Shown here in pieces: positions 11,642 through 64,000 of a stretch of 64,000 nucleotides of DNA (positions within the stretch are counted from its first letter, which is position 1; each line of letters begins with the position of its first letter). The stretch is from the sequence record OR062943.1. The stretch is one strand, 5' to 3'. The notes beneath the pieces are model-generated. The model searched no databases, was not told the DNA's origin, and worked only from the letters and a program-made list of their open reading frames with translations. This DNA is from Escherichia phage 241Ecol014PP. Both the position numbers and the translations under genes were made by a program.

Positions 11642-13387
11642 ATGGCGCAAGACATGACAAGCTTCGAGCAGGCGGTAGATCAAGTAATTGTTGATTCTGA
11701 ACGTTTGCACTTGATTGTCAACGGTAACGCTGTGGATGAAGTTGTCGTAGAGGATGGGACCACTATCCCTACGGTACGAAAAGCCATGCTTGACACCCTT
11801 TATTTTAAAACGCCACCAATCCCTTGGGCGTATGGTGCATCCACAACAGTTTTTAACCAGTTGTATGAGTTTAAAGGGGATACAGGCACTCAGTGGTGGT
11901 ACGCCCCAGCAGCATCAAAATCTAACCCGGTTAGAATGCCAGCAGATCCTTCACAATCTCCAAACTGGAGATTATACACCGACTCTGCAGTAATGGCAAA
12001 ATACTACGCAAAACTTAACAGCCCAAGGTTCGAAGGTGACCCGCGAGTACCTACACCTCCAATGGACGATAAGTCAGAGTCCATAGCAAACACAGAGTTT
12101 GTTGTTGACTATGTTGATAGCATATTTAAAGCCATGGAGGGGATGAAAGTTACTGTAGGATCTTTGGTGGTAAAAGGTCTTACAGAACTCGCTAACACTA
12201 TAGTTGGTGGCACCCTTACCTTACATGGACCTGTTAATGGGGCAGATTCTACTGCACGCTTTAGGAATCTAATCCTCACGGCAAATACTTCTACACTTAC
12301 TTTTGCGTGGAGCGATCCTAAGCATGCAGACTGGAGAAGTACAGAGCTGCAACCTCATGAAGTGTCCACCCACAGGGTTATAGCTGACACTATAACTTCT
12401 GGGAAACCAGTGGCTAATAATAACGATGTGCATTTTGATGGTCTGGGTAATAACTTTTTTGACTACGTGTACATTCGTGGTAATGCCATGAAGGCAGCAA
12501 CCGAGCCGACATTGCAGGTCGATGGGACCGCCAGGGTTAAGAACCTTGAGGTGACAGGCACCGTTACAGGGATAACATACTCTGTCGATGGCACCATGAT
12601 CTACCCTAGCTATATTGAAAGCACGGGTGATGCATTGATAAATGGCGATTTGGAGGTTGGCGGATCTGTAGTTATTCGAGGTACAGCCTCTATCCAAAAC
12701 ATAGCTCTGAATACCCTAAGAGTCAATGAGCGTGCAACTTTTGAAGGGGAAGGACTTACAGCCAACAAAGGTGTAATTACCGAGCTGACAACCACTACTT
12801 TAACTGCAACAACTGCAAACTCTGAAAACTGCAACGTTACCAGAAACTTGCAGGTAAATGGAGATGTTAGTTTAAACGCAGCAGGGACGGGCACCACCTA
12901 CCTTCACAACCTTGAAATATCCGGCACAGTGACTGGGTGGCTGCCAGACTTCTCTAATGTCAACTTTGTTTGTAATGGCATTAACTCCAGTGGCAAGATA
13001 ACCACCTCTCAAGAAATTGAGGCGGGTAAAACCATTACTGCCCCTACTTTCCACGCAGGAAAGGTAGATTTTGATTTAGAGGAGGTTGACGCGTCCAGTG
13101 GGACATGGACACCTAACGGGCAGGCCAGTATGTATGTTGTCCACGCGAAAGGGGATTTTACAATAGGACAATGGCCTGGGACATCAGCGGAAGATAAACC
13201 TTATCCATTCACTGCAGTTATCTATGTCATTCAGGATGCTGTAGGTCACAACGTGACTTTGCACGATAAGTATGCTATCCTGTCGGCAACACCTGTTATT
13301 AACAACAAGGCTAACAGTGTTACCTTGCTGCAATTAACGTATTGTGGTGTTGGTGATATTGTAGACGTAGTAATTGCACAACGTTAA
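11642..13387 (+). CDS. tail fibre / tail spike-like protein
   Basis: 581 aa, Thr/Gly/Asn-rich beta-helix-like repeats (LTATTANSEN.., GTGTTYLHNLEISGTVTG). Confidence 0.45.
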   Translation: MAQDMTSFEQAVDQVIVDSERLHLIVNGNAVDEVVVEDGTTIPTVRKAMLDTLYFKTPPIPWAYGASTTVFNQLYEFKGDTGTQWWYAPAASKSNPVRMPADPSQSPNWRLYTDSAVMAKYYAKLNSPRFEGDPRVPTPPMDDKSESIANTEFVVDYVDSIFKAMEGMKVTVGSLVVKGLTELANTIVGGTLTLHGPVNGADSTARFRNLILTANTSTLTFAWSDPKHADWRSTELQPHEVSTHRVIADTITSGKPVANNNDVHFDGLGNNFFDYVYIRGNAMKAATEPTLQVDGTARVKNLEVTGTVTGITYSVDGTMIYPSYIESTGDALINGDLEVGGSVVIRGTASIQNIALNTLRVNERATFEGEGLTANKGVITELTTTTLTATTANSENCNVTRNLQVNGDVSLNAAGTGTTYLHNLEISGTVTGWLPDFSNVNFVCNGINSSGKITTSQEIEAGKTITAPTFHAGKVDFDLEEVDASSGTWTPNGQASMYVVHAKGDFTIGQWPGTSAEDKPYPFTAVIYVIQDAVGHNVTLHDKYAILSATPVINNKANSVTLLQLTYCGVGDIVDVVIAQR

Positions 13388-42800: not shown

Positions 42801-43276
42801 GCGTTACCGTCCCTTCTGGAGCAATCATTGTGAGAAGGAATGGTAAAGTGGCAGTGTGCGGTAACTGTAATAACGCCAAAGCTTACTCTTCTGTAGCAGG
42901 CAAGGAGATTTCCCGTAACGATGGTAAGCCTGTCACGTATGGGGTTATGTACGGGGCACAAAAAGATAAAGTTGCAGATATGCTGGATATCTCCCCAGAG
43001 TTGGGGCAAAGGGTGATCGATGCACTTTGGGATGCCAACCCCGGTCTTAAGGGGCGCAAAGAGGATCTGGAGAAATTCTGGGAAGCAACAGGTAAGAAGT
43101 TTATCTACTCTTTTGATGGTCATGCTATCTGGACTCGATCTAAACACTCTTTACTTAATGCATACCAACAAAATGGTGGTGCATCGCTGTGTGACTTAGT
43201 TGGGATACTCATGCACCACCAAATGGTGAAGCGTGGGTGGTACGATGAAGGTGTTCGTCGTATTATTTATTACCAT
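39884..43276 (+). CDS. family-A DNA polymerase, exon 1 (contains intein)
   Basis: Exo I FDFEASGL; motif A-like IDGSNLEQL; motif B-like RNDGKPVTYGVMYGA; ORF stops 2 codons after the His expected to begin motif C (HDE). Confidence 0.7.
41897..42865 (+). mobile_element. intein (323 aa) within DNA polymerase, putative LAGLIDADG endonuclease core
   Basis: in-frame insert between motifs A and B: starts CYSGDTQILTEKG, block B-like VTDQHRM, ends VYCVTV..NGKVAVCGN with +1 Cys; LLIAIHDDGHL and FIASLSNWDGW candidate LAGLIDADG motifs. Confidence 0.65.
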
Positions 43277-43552
43277 AAATAACATTGTGGCTTCATAGAG
43301 TAATCTATGTCGAATAACCTCTTTAACTGCGGGAAGCCTAAACCTTATGGCAAGGTAATCCGCAACGAAGCGCTCAAAAGAGCGAACGCTCAGAGGCCAT
43401 TCCGAAAGGAAGTAGACCAGCAAGTGCGGTCGAAATGGGAGGATTCCTGTGGTTGCTTATCATAGGAATATGAGATGGTCCGATCCTACGTGAAAACGTA
43501 TGGCTATGCACGTAATGGTGCGGGGTAGCTTAACGACCTACCTGAACTATTG
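43277..43552 (+). mobile_element. group I self-splicing intron (ORF-less) in DNA polymerase gene
   Basis: 276 nt; exon 1 ends ..CCAU pairing with GUGG guide at 43287-43290; P-like CTGCGGGAAG 43327, Q-like AATCCGCAAC 43357, P7 AGACCA 43414 / TGGTC 43476; last nt G; joins H|DE of motif C. Confidence 0.6.
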
Positions 43553-53113: not shown

Positions 53114-53757
53114 TGGGAATACCTGTTAAAGACAGAAAAATATGTGGTCGTGGAGTAAACGATTTAAAAGACAAAGTCCCAATGTACCAATCTGTTAATG
53201 GTAAGAGAGTACCAGAACCTCACTATGCTACATGGAAAGCATTATTCCAGAGGTGCTACGGCGATAACTCAAAGTACCATACAGGTTGTGAAGTTGTAGA
53301 AGATTGGTGGTTGTTCTCAGAATTCTGGAAATGGATGGATACACAAGAGTGGAAAAGAAACGCTAAGAAGTTCACTCTTGACAAAGATCTGAAAATCCCC
53401 GGAAACAGAATATACTCCCCAGAAACATGTATGTTTGCTCCACCACAAATAAACACCTTATTTGGCATAAGACAGGCAGCACGAGGGGATTTACCTTTGG
53501 GTGTGACACTTAGAAAAGATGTAAACAAGTACCTCGTGCATTGTCATCAAGATGGAAAAATTGTTCATGGTGGTCATTTCGCTGATCCGCAGATAGCACA
53601 CAAGGTGTGGCAAGAAATGAAACTTGAGGAGATGAAGCTTCAAGCTATTAAAAACAAAGATGAGATTTGGCTGTTCGCCATTAAACGTGCAATAACTATC
53701 CTTGAGAATGATTTGAAAAATAATAAGGAGACTATAACATTGGTGAAATTTATTTAA
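53113..53757 (+). CDS. HNH_3-type endonuclease
   Basis: ATG 53113 after AAGGAGGG; Trp-rich region then TLDKDLKIPGNRIYSPETCMFAPPQIN core; track ORF begins at 53005. Confidence 0.5.
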   Translation: MGIPVKDRKICGRGVNDLKDKVPMYQSVNGKRVPEPHYATWKALFQRCYGDNSKYHTGCEVVEDWWLFSEFWKWMDTQEWKRNAKKFTLDKDLKIPGNRIYSPETCMFAPPQINTLFGIRQAARGDLPLGVTLRKDVNKYLVHCHQDGKIVHGGHFADPQIAHKVWQEMKLEEMKLQAIKNKDEIWLFAIKRAITILENDLKNNKETITLVKFI

Positions 53758-54085
53758 GATATTTATGGTAGTATTTATTTTAAAATTATAAAAATTTTAG
53801 GTGATGAGGGAAAATATGTAATGGATTTTCCCTTATTTATCAGATATTTGCAGATATTTGGAAATCCTTAGAAAATCAGAAAATGGATCGAAAACTAAAA
53901 TGGATTTTTCAGGGTAGACACGATGAGCTGAACCACTCATCCTATCGTTTGCGGCATATTCCGGACTACCATTCCAGATTTTCCGCGTATGCTCACATCC
54001 TCCTACTAGAACTTCCCCCACTTATCCTTGACCTTTTATGGTAATAATATAACCACTATCTTGAAGTTGCGGTGCAGCTTTCCAG

Positions 54086-54173
54086 GTACTCGATCTGTTT
54101 TTCGTTTCAAAGATTGAATTTTCTGAAAATTTTTCTCGATAAATTTCTTAGTACTCGATCTGTTTTTCGTTTT
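54086..54173. repeat. 22-bp direct repeat pair (GTACTCGATCTGTTTTTCGTTT) within ORF-free region
   Basis: copies at 54086-54107 and 54151-54173; surrounded by further short repeats (AAATGGAT x3, CAGATATTTG x2). Confidence 0.6.
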
Positions 54174-54377
54174 CTGAATCAGATTTTCTGGAAATCGTTC
54201 CGGCGCTCGACCTAAAATTTTTGGGGGCGAAATCGATTTTTCGTTTTCAGAAATGGATTTTTAAAATTTATATATGGGGATATTTTATGGGATATTGTTT
54301 TATAGGAAATTGTTACGGAGGATAATTAGCATGCTAATTAAATTTATTAAATGTGAGGAGTTCTCATTTAGAATTTT

Positions 54378-54392
54378 GAATGATAATCATTC
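54378..54392. promoter_or_regulatory. 15-bp palindrome GAATGATAATCATTC (operator-like)
   Basis: near-perfect dyad symmetry directly upstream of first GC-rich element copy. Confidence 0.35.
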
Positions 54393-54409
54393 TCGTTTGC
54401 AGAATAACG

Positions 54410-54432
54410 GGCAGGCCCGGTGATTGTCTCCC
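54410..54432. repeat. GC-rich element, copy 1 (direct)
   Basis: GGCAGGCCCGGTGATTGTCTCCC; 22/23 match to reverse complement of 62071-62093. Confidence 0.6.
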
Positions 54433-54548
54433 GGCCCCTGTTGCCCCGGCTTGTTATTATAGTATCACACAGGACAAAGAAGGCAAGGATTTTTTGCATA
54501 AATTTTTAAATGATAATGATAACCGTTCTCATTTTATGCAGCGCCCAT

Positions 54549-54586
54549 CTCCGGTGGTTGTCTCCCCCGTCACCGGTGCCTGCCGT
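54549..54586. repeat. GC-rich element, copy 2 (direct, longer)
   Basis: CTCCGGTGGTTGTCTCCCCCGTCACCGGTGCCTGCC; matches reverse complement of 62051-62093 with few mismatches. Confidence 0.6.
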
Positions 54587-54755
54587 CCTTTCGATAGGTA
54601 TATTGTGCCACCTGGCGGGGCCGCTGTCAACACTTTTCAAAAAATTTTTCTAACCTGGTGCGCTAACCGTTGCAACCTGGCGGGGCCAGCCTGGCAGGGG
54701 GGTGAAAGCTTGCAAACCTGGTAGTAGGGTAAACAATTGAAGAGGAGGTACAAAA

Positions 54756-54914
54756 ATGAAAGGTAATGCTACTCACCTGGAAAATGTAGCGATTAATGAC
54801 GCTGAGGCTATCGCCCTGGTTGAAAAGGCTATGGCGGGAGCGTTGGAACATAAAGAAGAGTACGAAAAAATGGTGGTTAACCTGGAGGGGGGCGGCAGGT
54901 GGATTCTATCATAA
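54756..54914 (+). CDS. small hypothetical protein (52 aa)
   Basis: ATG 7 nt after GAGGAGG; below track cutoff. Confidence 0.4.
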   Translation: MKGNATHLENVAINDAEAIALVEKAMAGALEHKEEYEKMVVNLEGGGRWILS

Positions 54915-54933
54915 AAATAATTTAAAATAGTCG

Positions 54934-54961
54934 TTGACAACAAGGTTAATCATGGTATTAT
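54934..54961 (+). promoter_or_regulatory. sigma70-like promoter
   Basis: TTGACA, 16-nt spacer, TATTAT. Confidence 0.5.
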
Positions 54962-55011
54962 TACCCTACAAGGTGAACAACACCGCACTAACCAGTAAAG
55001 AGGATAAATTT

Positions 55012-55209
55012 ATGAACGCATACGGGATCAAAGTACGTCGCAACACTCGCCAGGTGGTCACCAATCAAGTGATTTGCCGGGTGGATGTAACCATCAACAA
55101 CGGGCAAGGCCTTTATAAATTTCGTCGCGGTCATAGCTATACTCTGCAACAGCTTAATCGTTGCGCCCTGACAAAAGGTCAGATCAACCACTGGTTTAAT
55201 AAAAAATAA
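55012..55209 (+). CDS. hypothetical basic protein
   Basis: ATG 55012 after AAAGAGGA; track ORF begins inside the promoter at 54934. Confidence 0.4.
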   Translation: MNAYGIKVRRNTRQVVTNQVICRVDVTINNGQGLYKFRRGHSYTLQQLNRCALTKGQINHWFNKK

Positions 55210-55212
55210 ATA

Positions 55213-55241
55213 TTGACATGTAGTCTGAAACAAAATATACT
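55213..55241 (+). promoter_or_regulatory. sigma70-like promoter
   Basis: TTGACA, 17-nt spacer, TATACT. Confidence 0.6.
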
Positions 55242-55273
55242 GAAAGCACAAAAGACACTAAGAGGATAAAATC

Positions 55274-55672
55274 ATGAAAACCACAACCTTTAATTTTGAC
55301 AATGCTGACTTCTCTTTTTCTGATGTTAAAAGCTGCCGCCGTGATCGCGGATTCTACAAGGCCTATAATCTGGTTGGCCTGGACGATGATAATAATTTGC
55401 ACGAAGTAGCGGAGATCCGGTACTATGCCGCCGCCAGCGGTAACACTCACTACTGTGTATTTTGGATTCACGACAACAAGAACAATAAGTACGGTTATAC
55501 TGGCGGCAAGGCGAGCGGTCACGGTTATGATAAAGCCAACGCTGCACTTGAAAGCGCATTAAGTGCCATGGGAATCACTGCCGACGGCTGGATCTATGAA
55601 GAAGAGTTTTTGGCGGCACTTGCTAACCACCTAGGCTATAAAAAGCACATTGTAACATGCGCCCACGAATAA
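55274..55672 (+). CDS. hypothetical protein
   Basis: 132-aa ORF, AAGAGGA RBS; CTG/GGC/CGC-rich codon choice. Confidence 0.45.
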   Translation: MKTTTFNFDNADFSFSDVKSCRRDRGFYKAYNLVGLDDDNNLHEVAEIRYYAAASGNTHYCVFWIHDNKNNKYGYTGGKASGHGYDKANAALESALSAMGITADGWIYEEEFLAALANHLGYKKHIVTCAHE

Positions 55673-55682
55673 AAAAAAATTA

Positions 55683-55710
55683 TTGACACGCTGCAAAATT
55701 AAAGTAAACT
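55683..55710 (+). promoter_or_regulatory. sigma70-like promoter
   Basis: TTGACA, 16-nt spacer, TAAACT. Confidence 0.55.
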
Positions 55711-55720
55711 AGACACAAAA

Positions 55721-55739
55721 GGCGGGAATGTTTCCCGCC
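55721..55739 (+). promoter_or_regulatory. conserved 5' leader hairpin GGCGGGAA-TGT-TTCCCGCC
   Basis: perfect 8-bp stem downstream of promoter, upstream of RBS; near-identical hairpin at 57922. Confidence 0.5.
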
Positions 55740-55758
55740 AGCACAAAGGAAAAAGATC

Positions 55759-56163
55759 ATGAATAAGAACGTACGCCGCATCATGAACGAACTGGCAAAC
55801 GATGAAAAAATTATTGATATGCATTTGGTCAACATTTGCCGCCGTTGTGTAACATACAACAACCGAGCCGCAAAAGCGCGTGAGATGAACGCAAAAGGCA
55901 CCTTAAAGCCATTCCAGGTGGTGGTAAAGGCCATTAAAGATGTAACTAATACGGCAAACCAGGTACAGGGGAACACCAACGAGAGTACCAATATTGATCC
56001 GGCTTACATCATGAAACGGATCCGGACCTGCAAGAACAAAGAGCAAGTGTATAATGTTATAGACTGGTTGGATTCTATGGGCGATGTGGTTTACAATAGG
56101 TTTTCTGCAGCTATTGAGATCCAGCTTGACAGGTTGGACGGTAAAGTACTGAAAACTTACTGA
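55759..56163 (+). CDS. hypothetical protein
   Basis: 134-aa ORF. Confidence 0.45.
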   Translation: MNKNVRRIMNELANDEKIIDMHLVNICRRCVTYNNRAAKAREMNAKGTLKPFQVVVKAIKDVTNTANQVQGNTNESTNIDPAYIMKRIRTCKNKEQVYNVIDWLDSMGDVVYNRFSAAIEIQLDRLDGKVLKTY

Positions 56164-56164
56164 G

Positions 56165-56205
56165 TTTATTTTTAGATGGCCTTGACACCAGGGCCATCAA
56201 TAAAG
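56165..56205 (+). repeat. 41-bp promoter/palindrome cassette, copy 1
   Basis: TTTATTTTTAGATGGCCTTGACACCAGGGCCATCAATAAAG; dyad GATGGCC..GGCCATC surrounds TTGACA. Confidence 0.65.
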
Positions 56206-56243
56206 TAAACTAATCTCAACTAAGCGAAAAAGGGGGCTTTAAG

Positions 56244-56363
56244 ATGAGCGCTACACGCCAATACACAAAGGTAACTATTATCGTTTGCGTTGTCGGTTAC
56301 ATCCTGGCGCAAATGTTAATGAGTAGCGCTAACAGTTTTGCAAAATTTTTCTTAAATTTTTAA
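56244..56363 (+). CDS. small hydrophobic peptide (39 aa)
   Basis: ATG after AAAGGGGG; single transmembrane-like segment; below track cutoff. Confidence 0.3.
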   Translation: MSATRQYTKVTIIVCVVGYILAQMLMSSANSFAKFFLNF

Positions 56364-56391
56364 TTGACAAACTAACTTAGATCAATATACT
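56364..56391 (+). promoter_or_regulatory. sigma70-like promoter
   Basis: TTGACA, 16-nt spacer, TATACT; followed by leader hairpin GGGAAAACTTCCC at 56405. Confidence 0.55.
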
Positions 56392-56442
56392 TAAACACGT
56401 AAACGGGAAAACTTCCCAGAGCACACAAAAGGAGAAAACACC

Positions 56443-56784
56443 ATGACTACTATGACCGCCGAAGAAAAAGCCCTGCAGATCGCCGCTCTGAAAAAACAGA
56501 TTGCAGAACTTGAAGACAAGATCGACAATTTTGAAATCGACGAAGACAAACACGACGATAAATATGATGAATGGTTAGACGAGATCTACGGCGAAATCAT
56601 GATCGGAAACATTTCTTTTCTTCCGTCGCGTATCCTCAAGGAGCTAGATCCTATCGCTTACCGCTGCGGATTTAGCGACTACATCGACAGCCTGGATATT
56701 GAGGACGATGAAGAATACCAAGAATTACAGACAGAGCTTGAAGAAGTGAAAGAAGAGCTTGCAGAACTGGAAGAAAACGAGTAA
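56443..56784 (+). CDS. highly acidic protein (candidate DNA mimic)
   Basis: 113 aa with roughly one third Asp/Glu and few basic residues; AAAGGAGAA RBS. Confidence 0.45.
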   Translation: MTTMTAEEKALQIAALKKQIAELEDKIDNFEIDEDKHDDKYDEWLDEIYGEIMIGNISFLPSRILKELDPIAYRCGFSDYIDSLDIEDDEEYQELQTELEEVKEELAELEENE

Positions 56785-56826
56785 ATTTATTTTTAGATGG
56801 CCTTGACACCAGGGCCATCAATAAAG
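56785..56826 (+). repeat. promoter/palindrome cassette, copy 2
   Basis: ATTTATTTTTAGATGGCCTTGACACCAGGGCCATCAATAAAG. Confidence 0.65.
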
Positions 56827-56859
56827 ATAATTTATTAACACCATGAAAGGAGAAAGTAC

Positions 56860-57213
56860 ATGATCAGCGGGGCTAGTTTTATTATTGGCGCTATTGCTAC
56901 GGCTTTAATTGTAAACAAGATCCAATCTAAAAACGAAAAAGATAGCAACGCGCTCACAGAATACCCATTTTGGGTATTCAACGACAACGAAGACTACATA
57001 ATCAAGTACAAGAATGAGAAGGGCGACCAGGTAACACCGCGACCGATCCCGGCTTACAAAATGCAAGAAACACTATACCGCCTAAAGGCTGGAGGCGCAA
57101 AAATCGTAGACTTTTGGGGATATGATTGCAAGGATCAGGAGGTTATAAAACGGCGTATCCGGGCGATTCAGGCAAATATTGAGATCAGTAAGGGGGGAAG
57201 TTATGAAAATTAA
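56860..57213 (+). CDS. membrane-anchored protein
   Basis: 117 aa; N-terminal hydrophobic helix ISGASFIIGAIATALIV. Confidence 0.45.
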   Translation: MISGASFIIGAIATALIVNKIQSKNEKDSNALTEYPFWVFNDNEDYIIKYKNEKGDQVTPRPIPAYKMQETLYRLKAGGAKIVDFWGYDCKDQEVIKRRIRAIQANIEISKGGSYEN

Positions 57214-57400
57214 TTTCGAAAAAATTGTAAAGCGCCCCCACGATTCCGAAGAGCTGCCGGAACGCCGCCAGCGCAACAATAAACTGAATAAACCGAAAAG
57301 ATTTGGGAAGATCTGGCGGAATCATTATGATCGTAAACTGCCTGTCCTACTTTTGGAACGTGAACGACAGGCGGAACGATACCGCCACAAAGGCAAATAA
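57203..57400 (+). CDS. small basic protein
   Basis: ATG 57203 after AGGGGGGAAG; Arg/Lys-rich; overlaps end of upstream gene. Confidence 0.35.
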   Translation: MKINFEKIVKRPHDSEELPERRQRNNKLNKPKRFGKIWRNHYDRKLPVLLLERERQAERYRHKGK

Positions 57401-57408
57401 CAACCAAC

Positions 57409-57438
57409 GCCCCGCCATTGTGCGGGGCTTTTTATTTC
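57409..57438 (+). terminator. rho-independent terminator
   Basis: GCCCCGC-CATTGT-GCGGGGC then TTTTTATTTC. Confidence 0.7.
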
Positions 57439-57570
57439 TATCCTACGAATAGCGCCCCTGGTTGGCCCTACAAACGCCACAAAAGCCCCTACCTATGCAA
57501 TCCCCTTTCTTAGCCTGAAAACATCACCCAGGGCCGTTTTATGGTGTTAAAAATATCTTTTATTTAAAGC

Positions 57571-57598
57571 TTGACACCTTGGAATCGCCTGATATACT
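57571..57598 (+). promoter_or_regulatory. sigma70-like promoter
   Basis: TTGACA, 16-nt spacer, TATACT. Confidence 0.55.
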
Positions 57599-57633
57599 AA
57601 CCACATCAAAGCAAGAAGGAAGGAGTAAACGCC

Positions 57634-57894
57634 ATGCGTAAATTAAAAAATTTTGATAAAGTCGATGTTGTCCTGAATAATTTTTACTACTGCAACAACA
57701 AGGCCATTTGGTGGCGTGATAGTTCCACCGATAAAGTCAAGGCGCGCTTTCTCCAGGGGCACTGGCAAGGCCGCCCAGTGATTAAAATCATGGGGCAATT
57801 GGTAGCGTTTAAAAATTGCCGCCGTGTTGATGACGTTGAAGAGATTCTAAACATTTTACGCCACAATAATTTAAAAAATAGTGTTGACAAGTAA
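57634..57894 (+). CDS. hypothetical protein
   Basis: 86-aa ORF with AGGAAGGAG RBS. Confidence 0.45.
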   Translation: MRKLKNFDKVDVVLNNFYYCNNKAIWWRDSSTDKVKARFLQGHWQGRPVIKIMGQLVAFKNCRRVDDVEEILNILRHNNLKNSVDK

Positions 57895-57911
57895 GCCTCA
57901 ATAAGTATACT
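57884..57911 (+). promoter_or_regulatory. sigma70-like promoter
   Basis: TTGACA overlapping stop codon, 16-nt spacer, TATACT. Confidence 0.55.
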
Positions 57912-57921
57912 TAAACACGCA

Positions 57922-57940
57922 GGCGGGAAAACTTCCCGCC
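57922..57940 (+). promoter_or_regulatory. conserved 5' leader hairpin GGCGGGAA-AAC-TTCCCGCC
   Basis: same stem as 55721-55739, located between promoter and RBS. Confidence 0.5.
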
Positions 57941-57968
57941 ACTAACAAAGAAAATAGGAGAAAATATC

Positions 57969-58592
57969 ATGACCACCGTTAACATTACTACAGGTTACAA
58001 TTTATCTTTCGACGTGCTGACCGACGAACAAAAAGAAAAAGCCGTTGAAATGGTCCGCGAAAGAGAAGAACACAGCGGGGATAACTTTTTTGCAGAAAGT
58101 GTAATTGAAGACTATAAAGAATATGTCTTTCCAGAGTATGGCCTTGAAGATACCAAGGTACATTGGTCCGGCTTTTGGTGCCAGGGTGACGGCGCGTCAA
58201 TCAGTGCGGAAAACGTGGATTTAGAAAAATTCTTGCGTAAAGTAAAGGCCCTGACCAAGTTCCGATCAATTCGTCACTTGTTCGGCACAATGCACGATGG
58301 CGAGCTATCCGCAAGTGTTGAGCGTGATCCATATAGCCGCTATAGTCACGAAAACACTGTAAGCGGGTACATCGATACTACATGGCTAGACCTGACCGCC
58401 AAACAAGAAAATAAAGTGGAAGATCTGGAAGAGCTGATCACCGAGACGGTACGGGAGCTATCCCGCAAGGTTTACGTAGACCTGGAGGGGGCCTATCTTG
58501 AACAATTCACTACCGAAAACCTGATCGGCCTTATCAAGGCCAATGATTGGCGGTTTGATGTGGATGAAGATGGCGAGATGACTTTTTCATAA
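57969..58592 (+). CDS. hypothetical protein
   Basis: 207-aa ORF, acidic. Confidence 0.45.
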   Translation: MTTVNITTGYNLSFDVLTDEQKEKAVEMVREREEHSGDNFFAESVIEDYKEYVFPEYGLEDTKVHWSGFWCQGDGASISAENVDLEKFLRKVKALTKFRSIRHLFGTMHDGELSASVERDPYSRYSHENTVSGYIDTTWLDLTAKQENKVEDLEELITETVRELSRKVYVDLEGAYLEQFTTENLIGLIKANDWRFDVDEDGEMTFS

Positions 58593-58682
58593 ATAAAGTG
58601 TTGCAATAACCTAAAAACCTGCTATATTAAAACTCAAGGGGGCAAGACGTTTGCCCCCACACAAAACAAAGAGGAAAACATC

Positions 58683-59063
58683 ATGAAAAACACTACTAAA
58701 GCTATTGACACCGTTATGTTTAACCTGGTTACCTTTCGCGAGGATATGAAAGATCTTCCACGTGAAACAGTGTGCGATCACATTGAAAACTATCGCAAAC
58801 TAATCAAAGAGTTGCCTTTAAAACGTGATCAGTATGCGGCTAACGCCATGCTTAATGCCATGATCAAAAAGATGATCCAGTGTGATTTAACTCTAGCCTA
58901 TGATTATGCGGGTGGTCGTTTTGCAGTATACAATCAGCCCGTGCCTGGTATGAGCACCACAGAAGAATTGCACGCGTTAAATCTAAAACAAGACGTGTGG
59001 GATAGTATGCCCCGCGTGGTGGTATGGGTAGAAAGCGGGAAGATTTACGGCGATAATTTTTAA
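58683..59063 (+). CDS. hypothetical protein
   Basis: 126-aa ORF with AAGAGGAAA RBS. Confidence 0.45.
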   Translation: MKNTTKAIDTVMFNLVTFREDMKDLPRETVCDHIENYRKLIKELPLKRDQYAANAMLNAMIKKMIQCDLTLAYDYAGGRFAVYNQPVPGMSTTEELHALNLKQDVWDSMPRVVVWVESGKIYGDNF

Positions 59064-59073
59064 TCAGGTAACA

Positions 59074-59102
59074 GGCGGCGGCATATTTGCCGCCTTATTG
59101 TT
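59074..59102 (+). terminator. rho-independent terminator
   Basis: GGCGGCA-TATT-TGCCGCC then TTATTGTT. Confidence 0.6.
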
Positions 59103-59130
59103 AAACAGAACTGCAAAAGAGGTACATAGA

Positions 59131-59502
59131 ATGGAATTTATTATTTTGGCTGTATTGGTTGCCTTGTTTAACGCCTGGATCGCTGGCAAGATGGGCAGAT
59201 CCGCCTTTTTATGGTTTATTATATCTATTTTCCTGGGGGTGGTTGCAACTATTGTATTGGTTATCCTTGCAATTGTTGACAAGGGGAATAATAGAAAGGG
59301 TAAAGTATTTTCAGACCTGTACGACGCTCAAACGTTTGTCAACGCATATTATAGTGATCTCCCAGTCTCCCTACGCTGCAGCCTGGCACAACAAGTTTTC
59401 GATGAGGCTAAAACCAGAGATCAAGCCCATGAGATATGTTTAACTGAGGCGGATCGCCTATTTGAGAGGAATAGAAAATATGTGGGCCAACCGTTTAAAT
59501 AA
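59131..59502 (+). CDS. two-helix membrane protein
   Basis: ATG 59131 after AAAGAGG; two hydrophobic segments in first 60 aa; track ORF starts at TTG 59098. Confidence 0.45.
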   Translation: MEFIILAVLVALFNAWIAGKMGRSAFLWFIISIFLGVVATIVLVILAIVDKGNNRKGKVFSDLYDAQTFVNAYYSDLPVSLRCSLAQQVFDEAKTRDQAHEICLTEADRLFERNRKYVGQPFK

Positions 59503-59725
59503 TGCCACGTTAATTAATCCCTTTAGTGAAGATTTGAAGCCAGCCGCCTGGCGTGATGGATTCAATACCGAACGCTTTATTTTCAGGCCTGATCTTGAGG
59601 AATTTTATAACAATGGATCGAACAACGACAGAGATAATTTTTCTTGTGATGTGCGTAGTGATGGTACTCCTGGGGGCCATTGTAAACCACGTCACTACTA
59701 CCAGGAGGAAAGGTGGAGACGATGA
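59480..59725 (+). CDS. hypothetical protein (uncertain)
   Basis: ATG 59480; overlaps both neighbours; weak RBS. Confidence 0.25.
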   Translation: MWANRLNNATLINPFSEDLKPAAWRDGFNTERFIFRPDLEEFYNNGSNNDRDNFSCDVRSDGTPGGHCKPRHYYQEERWRR

Positions 59726-59841
59726 CACCCAAGGATAAGCCACGCACCGATAAGGCGCGCCGTGTTATGGTGTGGCTGGAGATCATCGCCCTTGAAATAT
59801 TGTTAGGCGTAGGGATGTACTTTATCGCTATAAGTAACTAA
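59722..59841 (+). CDS. small membrane peptide (39 aa)
   Basis: ATG after AGGAGGAAAGGTGGAG; C-terminal hydrophobic helix; terminator follows. Confidence 0.35.
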   Translation: MTPKDKPRTDKARRVMVWLEIIALEILLGVGMYFIAISN

Positions 59842-59846
59842 GAACG

Positions 59847-59876
59847 GCCCCCGATCATGGGGGCTTATCTTTTTAA
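59847..59876 (+). terminator. rho-independent terminator
   Basis: GCCCCC-GATCAT-GGGGGC then TTATCTTTTT. Confidence 0.7.
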
Positions 59877-59980
59877 AAAATTTTTCTTCTAGGGTGTTGC
59901 AATCCGGTCCGGAATGTGGATAATGACAATCAACGGGGAGCTAATCCCCACCAACACAAAAACCAGAAAGGAGAAACAAA

Positions 59981-60181
59981 ATGAGCAACAATATCCGCGT
60001 TATTAACTTCAAAAAAGAAGAAAAAATTGCCGTGCTGATTGACGGTCAAGAAATCTTCAAGGGCGATTATGAAGATCATCAAACGGCGATTAGTATCACT
60101 CGCGTGATCGGTTACCATAATTTCTACCCCCAAGGCGCTGAGGCAGCAGTTAAACGAATCAAAGAGATTGTAGGCCTGTAA
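59981..60181 (+). CDS. hypothetical protein
   Basis: 66-aa ORF, AAAGGAGAA RBS. Confidence 0.4.
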   Translation: MSNNIRVINFKKEEKIAVLIDGQEIFKGDYEDHQTAISITRVIGYHNFYPQGAEAAVKRIKEIVGL

Positions 60182-60182
60182 A

Positions 60183-60224
60183 ATTTATTTTTAGATGGCC
60201 TTGACCCCAGGGCCATCAATAAAG
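60183..60224 (+). repeat. promoter/palindrome cassette, copy 3 (TTGACC variant)
   Basis: ATTTATTTTTAGATGGCCTTGACCCCAGGGCCATCAATAAAG. Confidence 0.65.
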
Positions 60225-60272
60225 TAAATTTAAACCCTGTTAAAATAATCAGTACAAAAAGGAGTAATGATC

Positions 60273-60572
60273 ATGTTTATACCCGCCAATAATCTTTATT
60301 TCTTTGATGGTCAGATCGTAGACGGTGTGGAAGTGGAGATCACCGGGTGCCCTGGCGGTCAGGCTATGACTTTTCGGAATAATGCCTTTGATGATTCTCA
60401 TATCGTTATGAGAATGGAAGTTACGAAGCTGGACGACAAGAAAACACTTATTGACTATTCTGTGAAAGATCATCCAGACTACCGCATGATCCATGGCGAT
60501 TTGTGCATTGTTGACCGTGACAAGGTGGGCGGCATTGTGATCGCTATTGTGAACGATGTTTTCTCAAACTAA
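60273..60572 (+). CDS. hypothetical protein
   Basis: ATG 60273 is 8 nt after GGAG; track start 60267 is too close to the RBS. Confidence 0.4.
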   Translation: MFIPANNLYFFDGQIVDGVEVEITGCPGGQAMTFRNNAFDDSHIVMRMEVTKLDDKKTLIDYSVKDHPDYRMIHGDLCIVDRDKVGGIVIAIVNDVFSN

Positions 60573-60589
60573 TTTCAGCAGGTGATTTT

Positions 60590-60940
60590 ATGAAAGTTAA
60601 ACTATATTACCTTAATGAGCTTAACCCCCTTGCCCAGGTCCGCGCCCTGGCTAATACCTTGATTTGTGAGAAATCTGCATATTGTGTTGAGCTTAACGCC
60701 ATGCGTGAACGTCTTAAAGGGGGTTACTTTGACATCCATGCTGCAATCAACGGCCTGAATATGGAATTTATACGCTTACGTAACAGCCGCCGGAATCTGG
60801 TAAGAATGGAACAAGATCCGGCCCACCTTCGTAAGCTGGTTATTGAAAACCATCTGATGTTTAATGCCGAGGGTGATTATTACCATTTTCACCGCAAACG
60901 TTGGTACCGTGGCGGCAATACAAGCAAGAATGCAAAATAA
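60590..60940 (+). CDS. hypothetical basic protein
   Basis: 116-aa ORF. Confidence 0.4.
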   Translation: MKVKLYYLNELNPLAQVRALANTLICEKSAYCVELNAMRERLKGGYFDIHAAINGLNMEFIRLRNSRRNLVRMEQDPAHLRKLVIENHLMFNAEGDYYHFHRKRWYRGGNTSKNAK

Positions 60941-61143
60941 GGCCCCTAGCAGGGCCTGCAGCTATATAATCACATAAAGGCTATGCGGTTGCATGGCCTT
61001 TATTATTTTAGCGTTACAGCGACCCCCCAAGGCGCTTAAAAAATTTTTTAAAGAAGTACTTGCATCATTCCCGACAATATGGATAATAAGAGTTATCGAG
61101 GGGGCGGCCCCAATCATTAACCAGATAGATAGGAGTTAAAACC

Positions 61144-61428
61144 ATGGCTATTGTTACCGCTGGTGATGTAGTAGAAATGGAAGCAAAATACTTAAAAGCT
61201 GGTATGCATATCATCCGCAATGATCTTGAACTGGTCCTCACTATGGTTGATTATAACCCTGGTCAAGATTATCCAAGTGTTGACTACTTTTTCCAGTATG
61301 TTGATGAAGAATTAAAAGAGGATGAGGCTTATCAGGGTGAATTTTGTAATTTCTTTTGCCCTGATGAGGTTGTAAAAGTTATTTATCGACCTGGCGTACC
61401 TTTCCCACTGCACGCTATCAATAAATAA
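61144..61428 (+). CDS. hypothetical protein
   Basis: 94-aa ORF with AGGAG RBS. Confidence 0.4.
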   Translation: MAIVTAGDVVEMEAKYLKAGMHIIRNDLELVLTMVDYNPGQDYPSVDYFFQYVDEELKEDEAYQGEFCNFFCPDEVVKVIYRPGVPFPLHAINK

Positions 61429-61485
61429 ACCTGGAGGGGCCGAAAAGGCCCCCCCAATTATGAAAATAAAGAGGGGCAAATCATC

Positions 61486-61719
61486 ATGATGGAACAAATT
61501 AAACGCGCTGAGGCTATTAATGGCAATGTGATCTATTTTGTCAGCAATAACGAAAAAGGCGTACCATATGCGGCGGTAATAGTACAGCCTGACGGCAATT
61601 ATTGGTTTACTGTATACGGATCTTATTCTTTCGGGCGTCCGGTGCATGATAGAATTTTGAAAGTAGCGAACCCCACCGGGAAGAATATCACGGCAGAAAA
61701 ATTTTTTGAAAATAATTGA
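61486..61719 (+). CDS. hypothetical protein
   Basis: 77-aa ORF. Confidence 0.4.
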   Translation: MMEQIKRAEAINGNVIYFVSNNEKGVPYAAVIVQPDGNYWFTVYGSYSFGRPVHDRILKVANPTGKNITAEKFFENN

Positions 61720-61743
61720 CAACGTTTTAAATTAGTTTAAGAT
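61716..61743 (+). promoter_or_regulatory. sigma70-like promoter
   Basis: TTGACA overlapping stop codon, 16-nt spacer, TAAGAT. Confidence 0.4.
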
Positions 61744-61793
61744 GTATCACGTAGGGCGGCAATGGTGCCGCTCACAACTGGAAGGAAAACACC

Positions 61794-61997
61794 ATGACTA
61801 CAGCTAACCGCCTGATCGCCGTCCTGAACAAAGCAAAGGCTAACCGCCTGGATGTTCAAATCAAAGAGCAAGCAAATGGCGAGATCCTTGCTACGGTGTC
61901 CGATGGCGGTTATGTATCGGAATCATTTTTATCAGGGAGCTTAGATCATCTTGTTTGGAAATTAGAAATTATCGTGGAGGATATGCAGATCATCTAA
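61794..61997 (+). CDS. hypothetical protein
   Basis: 67-aa ORF with GGAAGGAAA RBS. Confidence 0.4.
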   Translation: MTTANRLIAVLNKAKANRLDVQIKEQANGEILATVSDGGYVSESFLSGSLDHLVWKLEIIVEDMQII

Positions 61998-62006
61998 TCT
62001 TTACAA

Positions 62007-62037
62007 AACAGGGCTTGTTTTTGTCCTGTTTTTTGTT
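62007..62037 (+). terminator. rho-independent terminator
   Basis: AACAGGGC..GTCCTGTT stem then TTTTGTT. Confidence 0.55.
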
Positions 62038-62050
62038 ATACTTGTTTCAC

Positions 62051-62093
62051 GGCAGGCACCTGGCGACGGGGGGAGACAATCATCGGGCCTGCC
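62051..62093. repeat. GC-rich element, copy 3 (inverted relative to copies at 54410 and 54549)
   Basis: GGCAGGCACCTGGCGACGGGGGGAGACAATCATCGGGCCTGCC; ends GGCAGGC/GCCTGCC are self-complementary. Confidence 0.6.
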
Positions 62094-62118
62094 TGTCATA
62101 TAAGAACTATAAAAACCG

Positions 62119-62147
62119 TTGACATCTGCCAGGTGGTGGGGTAACAT
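62119..62147 (+). promoter_or_regulatory. sigma70-like promoter
   Basis: TTGACA, 17-nt spacer, TAACAT. Confidence 0.45.
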
Positions 62148-62201
62148 TTATCTTGAAGGGGCAAAAGTGCCCACACAACAACCAGAAGAGAGGAAAACAT
62201 T

Positions 62202-62474
62202 ATGTCAAGCTGGATTAATCAAGAAGTCGAATCACGTTTTAACGCTATTTGGGATCTCATCGAAAAAGAGGACGGAACATCAAGCCCTTATCTCAATAAT
62301 CTTGAATTCCATTTCGTGGAAGCGATGAACGCAGAACATGATCACGAAGGTGGTGCGGATGAATTCGCTAAAGGATATGGCTTCAACAATGCCAACGAAA
62401 TGATCGAGGCGGTTGTACTCCAGGCTGAGGAAGATTATCAATTAAAAACGCTTGAATTCTGCCGCCGTAAGTAA
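62202..62474 (+). CDS. hypothetical acidic protein
   Basis: 90-aa ORF with AGAGAGGAAAA RBS. Confidence 0.4.
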   Translation: MSSWINQEVESRFNAIWDLIEKEDGTSSPYLNNLEFHFVEAMNAEHDHEGGADEFAKGYGFNNANEMIEAVVLQAEEDYQLKTLEFCRRK

Positions 62475-62536
62475 TAAGATAATGACACGGGCCAAAAGGC
62501 CCACTAAACAAAAACCACATAAAGAGGAAAAACATC

Positions 62537-62800
62537 ATGAAACGTCTTGATCAGCTCAAATTAGTTCAATATATGGCTTATCGTGTTCTTGAAGTCCAGA
62601 AAGGTAGCAAAAAAGAGGTTTGCGAGAAAGCTTATAAGATCTTCACTCGCAAAAAAGATGACTGGATGCTGCGCCAGACTAAAAAGGCTGACATCTTGGG
62701 GTACCTGGAAGAAGAGATCCGCCTTGAAGAGCAAGAAGAGATCCGCCGTAGTGAGGCAGATTATCAGGCAGCTTGGGAAAACTGGATGAGCAACAAATAA
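62537..62800 (+). CDS. hypothetical protein
   Basis: 87-aa ORF with AAAGAGGAAAA RBS. Confidence 0.4.
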   Translation: MKRLDQLKLVQYMAYRVLEVQKGSKKEVCEKAYKIFTRKKDDWMLRQTKKADILGYLEEEIRLEEQEEIRRSEADYQAAWENWMSNK

Positions 62801-62819
62801 TACAACAAGGTGCACGGTC

Positions 62820-62845
62820 AGGGGCTTAAAGCCCCTTTCTTTTTG
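62820..62845 (+). terminator. rho-independent terminator
   Basis: AGGGGC-TTAAA-GCCCCT then TTCTTTTTG. Confidence 0.75.
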
Positions 62846-63449
62846 TCCGCTATTCCCTATCACAAACGGCCCCGCCTGACAAGTGGAATAATCAACAAGC
62901 CAGCAATTTCCCACACTGTACAAACATACAGGTAAAATAACTATTGCATAATTTTTCATTGTGTGGTAGCAGGGCCATTTTTACCCGTTTTTCCTCCCAA
63001 AATTGCACGTAATGCCGCTATTGCATAAATTTTAACCTGATGCACATCTTCAATATCTTGTCAACAAATAAAAATTCTTATAAGTCATACACTTACATAA
63101 CCACAAAAGCGCGTTCTACGTGAAAAATCGAGTATAACTATAGCCGCCAGATCTCAGAATTTACGTACGCTCACCATTCTATAGCCTGCTAAGTATTTAT
63201 TCCAACCATAGAATAACGGAATAGTCAATACCTGCATAAAATAATTATTCGTTTAAATTGCATAACATAAATCAGCCAGGGTGTCAACATTTTTCGTAAA
63301 CAGTCCGAAATTATCACTGTGAGTTATCATAAACAGAGAAATCTTTAGTCGTCTAATGTTTACTGTACGTTACTATACTAACCGGAATCATTAGATGACT
63401 AATAGAAAAGATAAGAAATAATCAACAATACAATTATTTTATCTGTAAC

Positions 63450-63680
63450 AATAAGGCAACTATGCAAACGAATGGCATGGCGCGACGGAGTCGCGACATA
63501 ATATAAAAGCAGTAACCATCACCCCCGTGATAGTTTGTCTGCAAACTATTAATCAGATCATAGTTGCCTTGTATTTAGTTAATCATGACATAACAAGCAA
63601 GGCAACTATAGATCTTCTAATAGTTGCCTTGCTTTTATATTATGTCATAAATTATTAACATGCAAACGAATGGCATGGCT
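63450..63680. repeat. operator-like repeat cluster (coordinates approximate)
   Basis: 11-mer AAGGCAACTAT in four alternating-orientation copies; 19-mer TGCAAACGAATGGCATGGC twice; 17-bp inverted pair GACATAATATAAAAGCA / TGCTTTTATATTATGTC. Confidence 0.55.
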
Positions 63681-63714
63681 TATCATTTTTGAGTAAATAG
63701 TCTACACGTGAACA

Positions 63715-63860
63715 GTTAGCTATGTAAACTATTAGTCATGTAAACCGTTAGGCATGTAAACAGTAGAGGGAGTGAATAGTGACAGCGTAAACAGTCAGGC
63801 ATGTCAATTATGTCAATCGTGTCAGTTATGTCACAGTATGTCTAAAGTGTCAGACAAGTT
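63715..63860. repeat. iteron-like periodic repeats (coordinates approximate)
   Basis: ATGTAAAC at 16-bp period (3-4 copies) then six 9-bp-period TGTCA units. Confidence 0.55.
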
Positions 63861-64000
63861 TTTCTCCTCTTTGTCAAGTGCTGCATGAAAAATTTACAAA
63901 CTGGTATGGTAGCATTTTTGCGGCCCTGTTTACATTCAGTAATGTATGTATGACCCTTGTTGTGTGGGCGTTTAGACGTCTAGACGGTTGGAAGTCTACA

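Follow-up and report, generated by a model that had tools for sequence, protein, structure and literature searches.

Why should a GC-rich element some 45 to 50 bp long occur three times, once inverted, around a cluster of small phage genes? The locus lies in Escherichia phage 241Ecol014PP (record OR062943.1), of which a stretch of 64,000 nt, here called the window, was analyzed. The window belongs to an rV5-like Vequintavirus, and the 8.3 kb around the element match 190 phage records at 92 to 94% identity, nearly all of them from Escherichia phages of the rV5 type. Genes from ~26 kb to 62.8 kb are on the plus strand, and the small-gene cluster (54756-62800) holds about 25 small genes of unknown function together with many sigma-70 promoters and terminators. 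It is preceded by a noncoding region of ~1 kb (53757-54756) and followed by >1.2 kb of noncoding DNA from 62840 on. The rV5 genome paper makes the cluster the far end of a long unit, "genes 10-1-238-164" (PMC3606486). We report here that the copies belong to a conserved, phage-specific noncoding module linked to promoter-like sequences. An earlier sequence-only reading of this DNA had described the copies and had overlooked three things: their linkage to promoters, the Fur-box-like palindromes beside two of them, and their wide conservation.

Three copies at the edges of the small-gene cluster

The copies, designated A, B, and C (Table 1), were located with a sequence-only profile built from an alignment of 27 copies from many phages and searched with all filters off. 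The search of the window returned exactly three copies, with the next best match at E = 4. The profile includes copies A, B, and C themselves, which makes their own scores partly circular, and the independent support for the three copies comes from the conservation of the element in other genomes. The same kind of search in the whole 136-kb genome of the related phage EdH4 also gave exactly three copies, all at homologous places.

A repeat search pairs A with C as inverted arms of 29 nt that are 90% complementary (54404-54432 and 62071-62099) and B with C as arms of 18 nt at 89% (54551-54568 and 62069-62086). Gapped pairwise alignments have 38 of 55 identical columns for A and C, 40 of 63 for B and C, and 35 of 58 for A and B. 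Copy A carries GGCAGGCCCGGTGATTGTCTCCC at 54410-54432, and the alignment of copy B runs on to GGCAGGCACC at 54574-54590. The 16-mer core taken alone is weakly above chance (three matches with no more than three mismatches versus 0.55 expected; 2 of 100 shuffles reach three). A fourth, degenerate copy suspected by eye at 54690-54715 found no support in the profile search.

Sequence, repeat search, and profile together confirm what had been described: all three copies are where they were placed, C is inverted, and they do flank the small-gene cluster. Their GC content of 0.66 to 0.70 stands out against ~0.42 in the surrounding 2-kb windows. The claim that they lie in DNA free of open reading frames (ORFs) is true for credible genes; only mechanical ORFs overlap the copies, and EdH4 has a stop codon within the 30-codon ORF that ends in copy A. 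The element copies share neither a start codon nor a reading frame and have no coding potential, and no tRNA was found.

Conservation in related phages and in a freshwater group

With copy C as the query, 123 phage records match at 80 to 98% identity, including Pectobacterium and Salmonella phages and phi92-like coliphages; the search among relatives that the sequence-only reading had called for thus places the element in several genera. In the shared layout, a long noncoding stretch that precedes the small-gene cluster holds an A-like copy, with an inverted C-like counterpart 8 to 11 kb downstream. Judging by the loci compared (Table 1), and with Seunavirus EC152 having an A-like copy as well, at least five related genera of phages show the arrangement. 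Several ~150-kb phages retain 85 to 89% identity over the A module (54360-54432) and C module (62006-62086), and no other part of the 12.5-kb query aligns with them. From genus to genus, the genes that follow the C-like copies lack homology, which rules out a gene-specific cis-regulatory leader.

Scans of viral and metagenome sequences revealed at least 12 further copies in unrelated freshwater-type contigs (L093, L135, L148, L201, L225, L232, L235, and L267). About 90% of the matches in the metagenome scan were chance matches in GC-rich DNA, and the freshwater copies are among the remainder. A first scan of IMG/VR with the 16-mer core had returned mostly unrelated prophage coding sequence (…CTGCCGGTGATTGTCTCCCAGTAC…) and chance matches, along with five relevant loci. 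The freshwater contigs have one copy per gene cassette, every 0.6 to 3 kb, always with the G-rich sense in the direction of the genes. There, a gene and its terminator are followed by (TGn)TATAAT; six bases on come CAATACCTGARAACGGGGGAGACAAWCACCG and an operator-like TTTCAAATGTAA, then a canonical promoter, TTTACA-17-TATAAT, and the next gene. Copy C follows the same plan: terminator, candidate promoter P1, element, candidate promoter P2, and the ATG at 62202.

Linkage to a predicted promoter

All 38 distinct copies compared have, on the G-rich strand, a −10-like hexamer (at least four of six matches, with A2 and T6) that ends 21 to 35 nt upstream of the core. The distance is fixed for each type of copy, at 21 nt in the freshwater group, 23 in A, 28 in C, and 35 in B. 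TG precedes the hexamer in 23 of the 38 (1/16 expected per site) and a −35 with at least four of six matches is present in 19, although these copies share ancestry, and the counts are therefore not independent trials and give no strict probability. On the opposite strand, TG occurs in just 1 of 36 copies. The pattern is present in both of the unrelated phage groups.

The arrangement TGnTATNNT-N6-A of the candidate promoter of copy C, P1(C), is also found in Certrevirus, SSBI34, PD06, and Mt1B1_P17. As an inverted repeat pair, the region of P1(A) is homologous to the terminator and −10 flank of copy C, and A and B keep only a relic of the terminator stem. Copy C contains the CACCTGGCG submotif of the direct repeats at 54609-54722 (Table 1), and the P2(C) spacer contains the complement of that submotif.

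A linear core without a shared fold

The 27 aligned copies have variable flanks around a nearly invariant core, GGGAGACAAWCACCGG, which is linear and asymmetric. The fuller motif reads (ACCTGG-N4-5-)GGGGGAGACAAWCACCGG, followed loosely by CTGC. The core is purine rich and often resembles a Shine-Dalgarno sequence (GGGAGGT in PD06). As the constraint on the core, Shine-Dalgarno mimicry is a partial explanation at most, since GGAG is lost in the C-like copy of Mt1B1_P17 (GGGGAAGAT) and in the A-like copy of PD06 (GCGAGAC).

The hairpin previously seen in the copy at 62051 is real: copy C folds as GGCAGGC...GCCUGCC at −21 to −22.6 kcal/mol (z = −1.7 to −2.8). It was not found in A, in B, or in the homologues from other genera. 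RNAalifold applied to 20 copies gave −0.3 kcal/mol with two invariant pairs and no compensatory changes, i.e., no consensus structure, and z-scores of single-sequence folds range from +1.15 to −3.1, with the freshwater copies near 0. In copy B, the outer stem has no 3′ arm, and a C-to-G change in the putative inner stem of locus L343 is uncompensated. Rfam in gathering mode found only a group I intron in the whole window and nothing at the copies; in permissive mode, over 53700-54800 and 61950-62250, nothing overlapped them. With no consensus fold, scattered z-scores, and no Rfam match even under permissive settings, the structured-RNA role suggested earlier is not supported. For a small-RNA gene, the promoter is well supported by sequence, and no conserved terminator follows the element in either sense.

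Three further candidates were rejected. A sigma-54 promoter (GGCAC…GC) has the wrong spacing in every copy, as judged by eye. A sigma-dependent pause at the −10-like GACAAT is disfavored because more than half of the copies have A or C in place of the T. The element shares GGTGATT with the ToxI repeat; no ToxI-like 36-mer (up to 12 mismatches) was found in the window or the related loci, which argues against mimicry of a ToxI-like antitoxin.

Inversion, mobility, and a mosaic boundary at copy C

The earlier proposals included sites of recombination or inversion and the footprint of a miniature mobile element. No inversion was found: 74 Vequintavirus records cover at least 80% of 51.5 to 64 kb, and every listed row aligns on a single strand. 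The orientation of the copies is likewise the same in five genera. Nor is there a match to the element in 5,426 complete E. coli genomes, and the 18-mer core gives 51 scattered matches in 185,579 bacterial and archaeal species, against ~70 estimated by chance for 17 specified bases. In every phage genus examined, the copies are syntenic. These results do not support a mobile-element footprint, and the listed alignments show no inversion; an evolutionary part as a recombination linker is plausible.

The linker role draws on a comparison with PD06, a phi92-like phage of another subfamily, in which identity is 97 to 100% over 61738-62017, 85% over 62018-62057, 70% over 62058-62097, and ~47% beyond. 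The exchanged cassette (61738-62040) comprises a promoter, a gene for a 67-amino-acid protein (phrog_14244), and a terminator. Because identity this high is shared with a phage of a different subfamily, the alignment indicates that the cassette was exchanged recently, its right end lying at P1 and the element. The coincidence of recombination junction and element refers to the one junction examined, copy C versus PD06.

Fur-box-like palindromes and iteron-like repeats

Consensus sequences for Fur binding, in a 19-bp and a 7-1-7 form, are well established for E. coli and B. subtilis. Near-consensus Fur-like palindromes flank the small-gene cluster of rV5-like and phi92-like phages, in the noncoding DNA to either side (Table 1). 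The window has three Fur-like sites with no more than two mismatches, versus 0.41 expected. Arrays are found in PD06 (five sites within ~110 bp), DU_PP_I, and Mt1B1_P17, and DU_PP_I, Mt1B1_P17, SSBI34, and EC152 have at least one each by the A-like copy, beside which relatives also carry perfect palindromes such as TGAGAATCATTCTCA. In DU_PP_I and SSBI34, the palindromes are dense in the noncoding junction beyond the cluster as well. The freshwater copies are without such boxes, and copy C has only a decayed one; the palindromes are neighbors of the element and not part of it. Literature searches returned no mention of Fur-like palindromes in these phages. They may bind host Fur or a phage protein. 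Beside copy A, the box fills the spacer of a possible weak rightward promoter, TTGAAT-N18-CAGAAT, and the same is seen at the A-like copy of DU_PP_I. Convergent transcription across the element is possible, the candidate rightward promoter being weak and not general.

Iteron-like repeats lie to the left of copy A, on the side faced by P1(A) and P1(B). Similar TTCTCGATCGATTTTTC repeats are found to the left of the A-like copy in EC152 (L348, 60-170), and the iteron-like repeats carry GATC sites. The noncoding region that bears them may be a replication origin. In the window, the perfect 16-bp palindrome AATTAGCATGCTAATT (54324-54339) separates these repeats from the Fur-like box of copy A.

Table 1. 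Positions of the element copies and neighboring features in the window and of the corresponding loci in related phages
Feature	Position	Strand	Sequence and remarks
Copy A	54402..54451	− (G-rich "GA" sense)	Core GGGAGACAATCACCGG; profile match 42.5 bits, E = 3e-12
Copy B	54540..54590	− (GA sense)	Core GGGGGAGACAACCACCGG; profile match at 54540-54582, 30.8 bits, E = 1.4e-8
Copy C	62051..62100	+ (GA sense; inverted relative to A and B)	Core GGGGGGAGACAATCATCGG; profile match 40.8 bits, E = 1e-11
P1(A), candidate promoter	54456..54469	−	Perfect TATAAT (54461->54456) overlapping TG-extended GATACT (54469->54461); leftward into copy A
P1(B), candidate promoter	54602..54630	−	TTGACA-17-(TG)CACAAT; 10/12, TG present, perfect −35; points leftward into copy B
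Terminator-like hairpin and T-run	62005..62032	+	Ends upstream gene 61794-61997; directly before P1(C); EdH4 annotates a terminator at the homologous place
P1(C), candidate promoter	62034..62042	+	TG-extended −10 TGtTATACT; predicted start A at 62049, two bases before the element
P2(C), candidate promoter	62119..62147	+	Canonical TTGACA-17-TAACAT; 10/12 match; between copy C and next gene (ATG 62202)
Five direct repeats	54609..54722	+	(A/C)ACCTGG(C/T)(G/A); between copy B and first small gene
Fur-box-like palindrome by copy A	54377..54395	+	TGATAATCATTCTCG (54381-54395) matches 12/14 of TGATAATnATTATCA and 15/19 of GATAATGATAATCATTATC
Two overlapping Fur-box-like sites by copy B	54511..54531	+	TGATAATGATAACCG, TGATAACCGTTCTCA; jointly GATAATGATAACCGTTCTC matches 16/19 of consensus
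Three iteron-like 47-nt repeats	54076..54261	+	…CTCGATCTGTTTTTCGTTT…; left of copy A
DU_PP_I (Certrevirus)	A-like ~4100; C-like ~12040		
SSBI34 (Seunavirus-like Salmonella phage)	A-like ~1000; C-like ~12030		
PD06 (Justusliebigvirus)	A-like ~1470; C-like ~12040		
Mt1B1_P17 (Phapecoctavirus)	A-like 1432-1475; C-like 12046-12095		
Fur-like palindromes, locus L124	1334-1441		
Fur-like palindromes, locus L122	3980-4076; 13488-14255		
Fur-like palindromes, locus L347	~1320-1420		
Fur-like palindromes, locus L123	953-967; 13552-14128		
Fur-like palindromes, locus L057	2546-2677		

A candidate promoter-proximal control element

Our preferred reading, which we hold tentatively and with somewhat less than even confidence, is that the element is a promoter-proximal control element with a recognition sequence at about +14 to +37 of P1; this sequence would be read in the DNA, in the nascent RNA, or in the nontemplate strand. 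P1 would be a promoter of the sigma-70 type, usually TG extended and often placed right behind the terminator of the preceding gene, with a −35 recognizable in half of the copies. Because a −10 hexamer lies at a set distance upstream in all copies, the element would correspond to the initial transcribed region of P1; starting a few bases past the predicted start, it would make up the first ~45 nt transcribed, i.e., the 5′ leader. The core would then be the recognition site of a trans-acting factor that acts on the P1 transcription complex or the nascent RNA just after initiation. Such a site could act as an operator, blocking or shutting off transcription at about +14 to +37, or as a loading site, similar to ops or nut, that alters elongation or termination. 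The rV5-like and phi92-like phages would have one such unit per cluster end (duplicated here as A and B), pointing outward, and the copies form an inverted pair because the units at both ends face outward. We infer that P1 fires, that the element is transcribed in the G-rich sense, and that a factor binds it. The regulator binding site listed among the earlier candidate roles fits the evidence and enters into our preferred reading, the core being linear, asymmetric, nearly invariant, and at a fixed distance from the promoter. The occurrence of the element in the unrelated freshwater group points to a partner that is mobile or else widely conserved.

Several points weigh against a promoter-proximal control element. 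Both the activity of P1 and the strand transcribed are predictions from sequence alone, and the same evidence fits a DNA operator and an RNA or nontemplate-strand signal alike. The core has variants, GGGGAAGATAATCACCGG in Mt1B1_P17 and GCGAGACAAACACCGC in the A-like copy of PD06. The leftward direction of copies A and B, away from the small genes, is odd for an mRNA leader: it leads through ~650 nt of noncoding sequence and on into the upstream gene in the antisense direction. SSBI34, Mt1B1_P17, and PD06 have a small minus-strand gene ahead of the A-like copy, which fits the usual layout, and the window is without one. The opposite strand of A and B has a plausible promoter overlapped by a Fur box. 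Finally, a binding partner was sought among the flanking proteins and none was nominated, all of those tested being of unknown function and the small ones having no known domains.

Among the other explanations, a recombination linker or mosaic-boundary cassette, providing short homology for cassette exchange between coinfecting phages with regulation secondary, is unlikely in our estimate. It would account for the fall in identity with PD06 across P1 and the element, for the module being an island of identity in otherwise unalignable genomes, and for the freshwater group having a copy between every cassette. However, a single junction was examined, rV5-like genomes hold two or three copies at constant syntenic positions while other repeats (the 52-nt family described below) separate the cassettes inside the cluster, and a mere patch of homology would have no need of a 16-nt core kept invariant at a set spacing from a −10. 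Crossover sites for site-specific inversion, or remnants of a miniature mobile element, are scarcely credible: inverted copies do flank a 7.6-kb segment, yet none of the listed genomes is inverted, all five genera share one orientation, E. coli has no match and bacterial matches are at chance level, and no recombinase is evident among the flanking proteins tested. The chance that the element is a structured RNA appears slight, whether as a 5′ stabilizing hairpin or as an RNase III site, and whether folded from the element alone or from A or B paired with distant C within a single long transcript. In its favor, the copy C fold (−21.1 kcal/mol, z = −2.8) starts 2 nt from the predicted 5′ end, A and C are extensively complementary, and other early promoters are followed by 5′ hairpins of the form GGCGGGAA-N4-TTCCCGCC. 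But no covarying pair supports a common fold, the 3′ arm missing from B, the freshwater z-scores, and the L343 change count against it, and many terminators stand between A or B and C.

Two other explanations look to the DNA around A and B. In one, transcription is Fur gated and convergent, and the C/U-rich strand of A and B (and of the C-like copies in Certrevirus and SSBI34) would be read from a promoter whose spacer is a Fur box. The product would be an iron-responsive RNA with an anti-Shine-Dalgarno-like segment (UUGUCUCCCC; UUACCUCCCC in PD06), antisense to the P1 leader or interfering with P1. The near-consensus palindromes adjoin the element on that side, TTGAAT-N18-CAGAAT is kept at the A copies of the window and DU_PP_I, a patch (C)WGAATARC lies by most copies, and a minus-strand transcript of copy C would meet its hairpin and then UUUUG. 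We nevertheless consider this explanation quite unlikely: the promoter, with its weak −10, reaches 8/12 overall and goes uncalled in the promoter scan, TG is almost absent on that strand, the freshwater group has neither such a promoter nor a Fur box and the box of copy C is decayed, DU_PP_I has no terminator in the C/U sense, and a phage protein, not Fur, could be what the palindromes bind. The broader idea that virulent rV5-like and phi92-like phages use host Fur, with the box arrays gating transcription across the element so that iron status would balance outward G-rich P1 transcripts against an opposing C/U-rich, anti-Shine-Dalgarno-like RNA at both cluster ends, seems improbable. To our knowledge, no origin has been mapped in these phages. 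The same low probability attaches to the other explanation, in which the ~1-kb noncoding region would be a replication origin that P1(A) and P1(B) activate or prime, with the G-rich leader promoting a stable RNA-DNA hybrid or marking the origin boundary. The iteron-like repeats lie downstream of P1(A) and P1(B), with the same type beside the A-like copy of EC152, and the region contains AT-rich DNA as well as GATC sites and palindromes; in SSBI34, a palindrome and iteron-like DNA come after the C-like copy and mirror the A side, and there are G-runs in the RNA sense. Against this, freshwater copies front ordinary gene cassettes, copy C is directly followed by a promoter and genes, and the rV5 paper found only skew changes tied to the direction of transcription (PMC3606486).

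Comparison with known systems

The element is akin to two kinds of known signal, the promoter/stem-loop cassettes of T4-type phages and lambdoid promoter-proximal signals, and has the defining features of neither. The PeSL (promoter-early stem-loop) cassettes reportedly described in T4-type phages by Arbiol et al. in 2010 are short, conserved intergenic modules that, like copy C, lie among functionally uncharacterized small genes and join a terminator-like stem-loop to an early promoter of the sigma-70 type; they are associated with modular shuffling, and one mosaic junction, that with PD06, falls at copy C. We tested for the stem-loop and promoter and found them: the terminator of copy C is directly followed by a sigma-70 −10, and the same is true of the freshwater copies. 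In contrast, PeSLs do not have the conserved ~45-nt G-rich segment downstream of the −10, and there is no sequence similarity. Also unlike PeSLs, the rV5-like copies number two or three, stand at the cluster edges as an outward inverted pair, and do not lie between most of the small ORFs, whereas the freshwater group does repeat the element.

Lambda pL-nutL and pR-nutR and the HK022 put sites share with the element orientation dependence, a (here predicted) place within the first tens of nucleotides of the transcripts from two outward promoters around a central region, and terminator-rich surroundings. However, the element has no boxA-like sequence (by eye) and no conserved two-stem fold like that of put, and a 4-bp GNRA-type minihairpin (CCUG-GCGA-CGGG) is found in C-type copies only. 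No N-like protein was identified among the flanking proteins, and the leftward transcripts predicted from A and B are without obvious genes. The ops site of RfaH (GGCGGTAGnnTG, on the nontemplate strand of 5′ leaders) is likewise a short, linear, orientation-specific leader signal made of sequence and not structure. The best local matches (GGCGGGCACTTG in DU_PP_I and GGCAGGCACCTG here) differ in having no TAG triplet, in lying in the variable 5′ flank and not the core, and in being absent from freshwater copies.

Fur-regulated promoters such as those of aerobactin and fhuA, in which the box overlaps the −35/−10 region, resemble the region in having near-consensus boxes, single or in arrays, which here fill a candidate promoter spacer beside the element. 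They differ in that the boxes here, putative Fur sites, are in a virulent phage and not by iron-uptake genes. The face-to-face pR and pL promoters of P2 and 186 offer a parallel to the possible convergent promoters ~60 to 70 bp apart, with transcripts overlapping across the element, although the second (C/U-sense) promoter here is weak and not general, and these virulent phages have no lysogeny switch.

The element is not described in the rV5 paper (PMC3606486), in the Certrevirus CB7 paper, or in anything returned by full-text searches that included the core sequence; the CB7 paper reports only a sigma-70-like early promoter. The rV5-like and phi92-like phages are widely used broad-host-range coliphages (therapy, biocontrol cocktails, and the BASEL collection), and their transcription program is essentially unmapped. 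A promoter-attached module kept at 85 to 89% identity that marks both cluster ends is a strong candidate for a control point of the early program and a precise target for mutation. The Fur-box arrays raise the possibility that virulent phages read the iron status of the host. If the element is only a promoter leader and recombination linker, it will still be a useful landmark for annotation.

Other features of the window and its relatives

The minus-strand gene that precedes the A-like copy is at L123 1215-1496 (−) in SSBI34, L347 1688-1954 (−) in Mt1B1_P17, and L124 1711-1974 (−, unannotated) in PD06 (phrog_19316/33408), and it is absent from DU_PP_I as well. Its product has an N-terminal LGWQGGTVHQVA..TGL motif that looks like a helix-turn-helix by eye.

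The noncoding DNA at 62840-64000 is rich in short repeats, with GCAAACGAATGGCATGGC and ATAGTTGCCTTG twice each, CATGTAAAC three times, and a run of (A/G)TGTCA; it also contains a perfect 17-nt inverted repeat at 63495/63630. In Bas54 (Vequintavirinae), a ~2-kb intergenic region tolerates no transposon insertions (preprint 10.1101/2025.11.20.689424). Because that region is described as separating oppositely transcribed genes, it is probably the junction that starts ~750 bp to the right of copy C and not the A/B region, and 62840-64000 is probably part of it.

Inside the cluster, a 52-nt intergenic cassette is found three times (56162-56213, 56783-56834, and 60181-60232), with 88 to 100% identity among the copies. 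It consists of a stem-loop, GATGGCC-TTGACACC-AGGGCCATC, that holds a TTGACA −35 and is followed by TAAAGT, and it looks like a PeSL-type promoter/stem-loop repeat between small genes. At 55720-55742 and 57919-57940, canonical early promoters are followed, at the predicted mRNA 5′ end, by the GC hairpin noted above. Such hairpins are kept, with differing sequences, in PD06 (L124, ~12180), Mt1B1_P17 (L347, ~12210), DU_PP_I, and SSBI34 and are likely 5′ stabilizing stem-loops. Just downstream of another promoter (61716-61743), 36 nt at 61743-61778 are 97% identical in several distant ~130- to 150-kb phages (UP17, ABPW7, and EP57) and form a further island of conserved noncoding DNA.

CCWGG (Dcm) sites are ~3 to 6 times denser in 54000-63000, at 4 to 9 per kb, than over the first 53 kb (~1.4 per kb), and five of them are packed into 54611-54717. 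Further upstream, the intron recovered by the Rfam search is a group I catalytic intron at 43267-43502 on the plus strand (RF00028, 64.7 bits, E = 4e-14), which presumably interrupts a phage gene.

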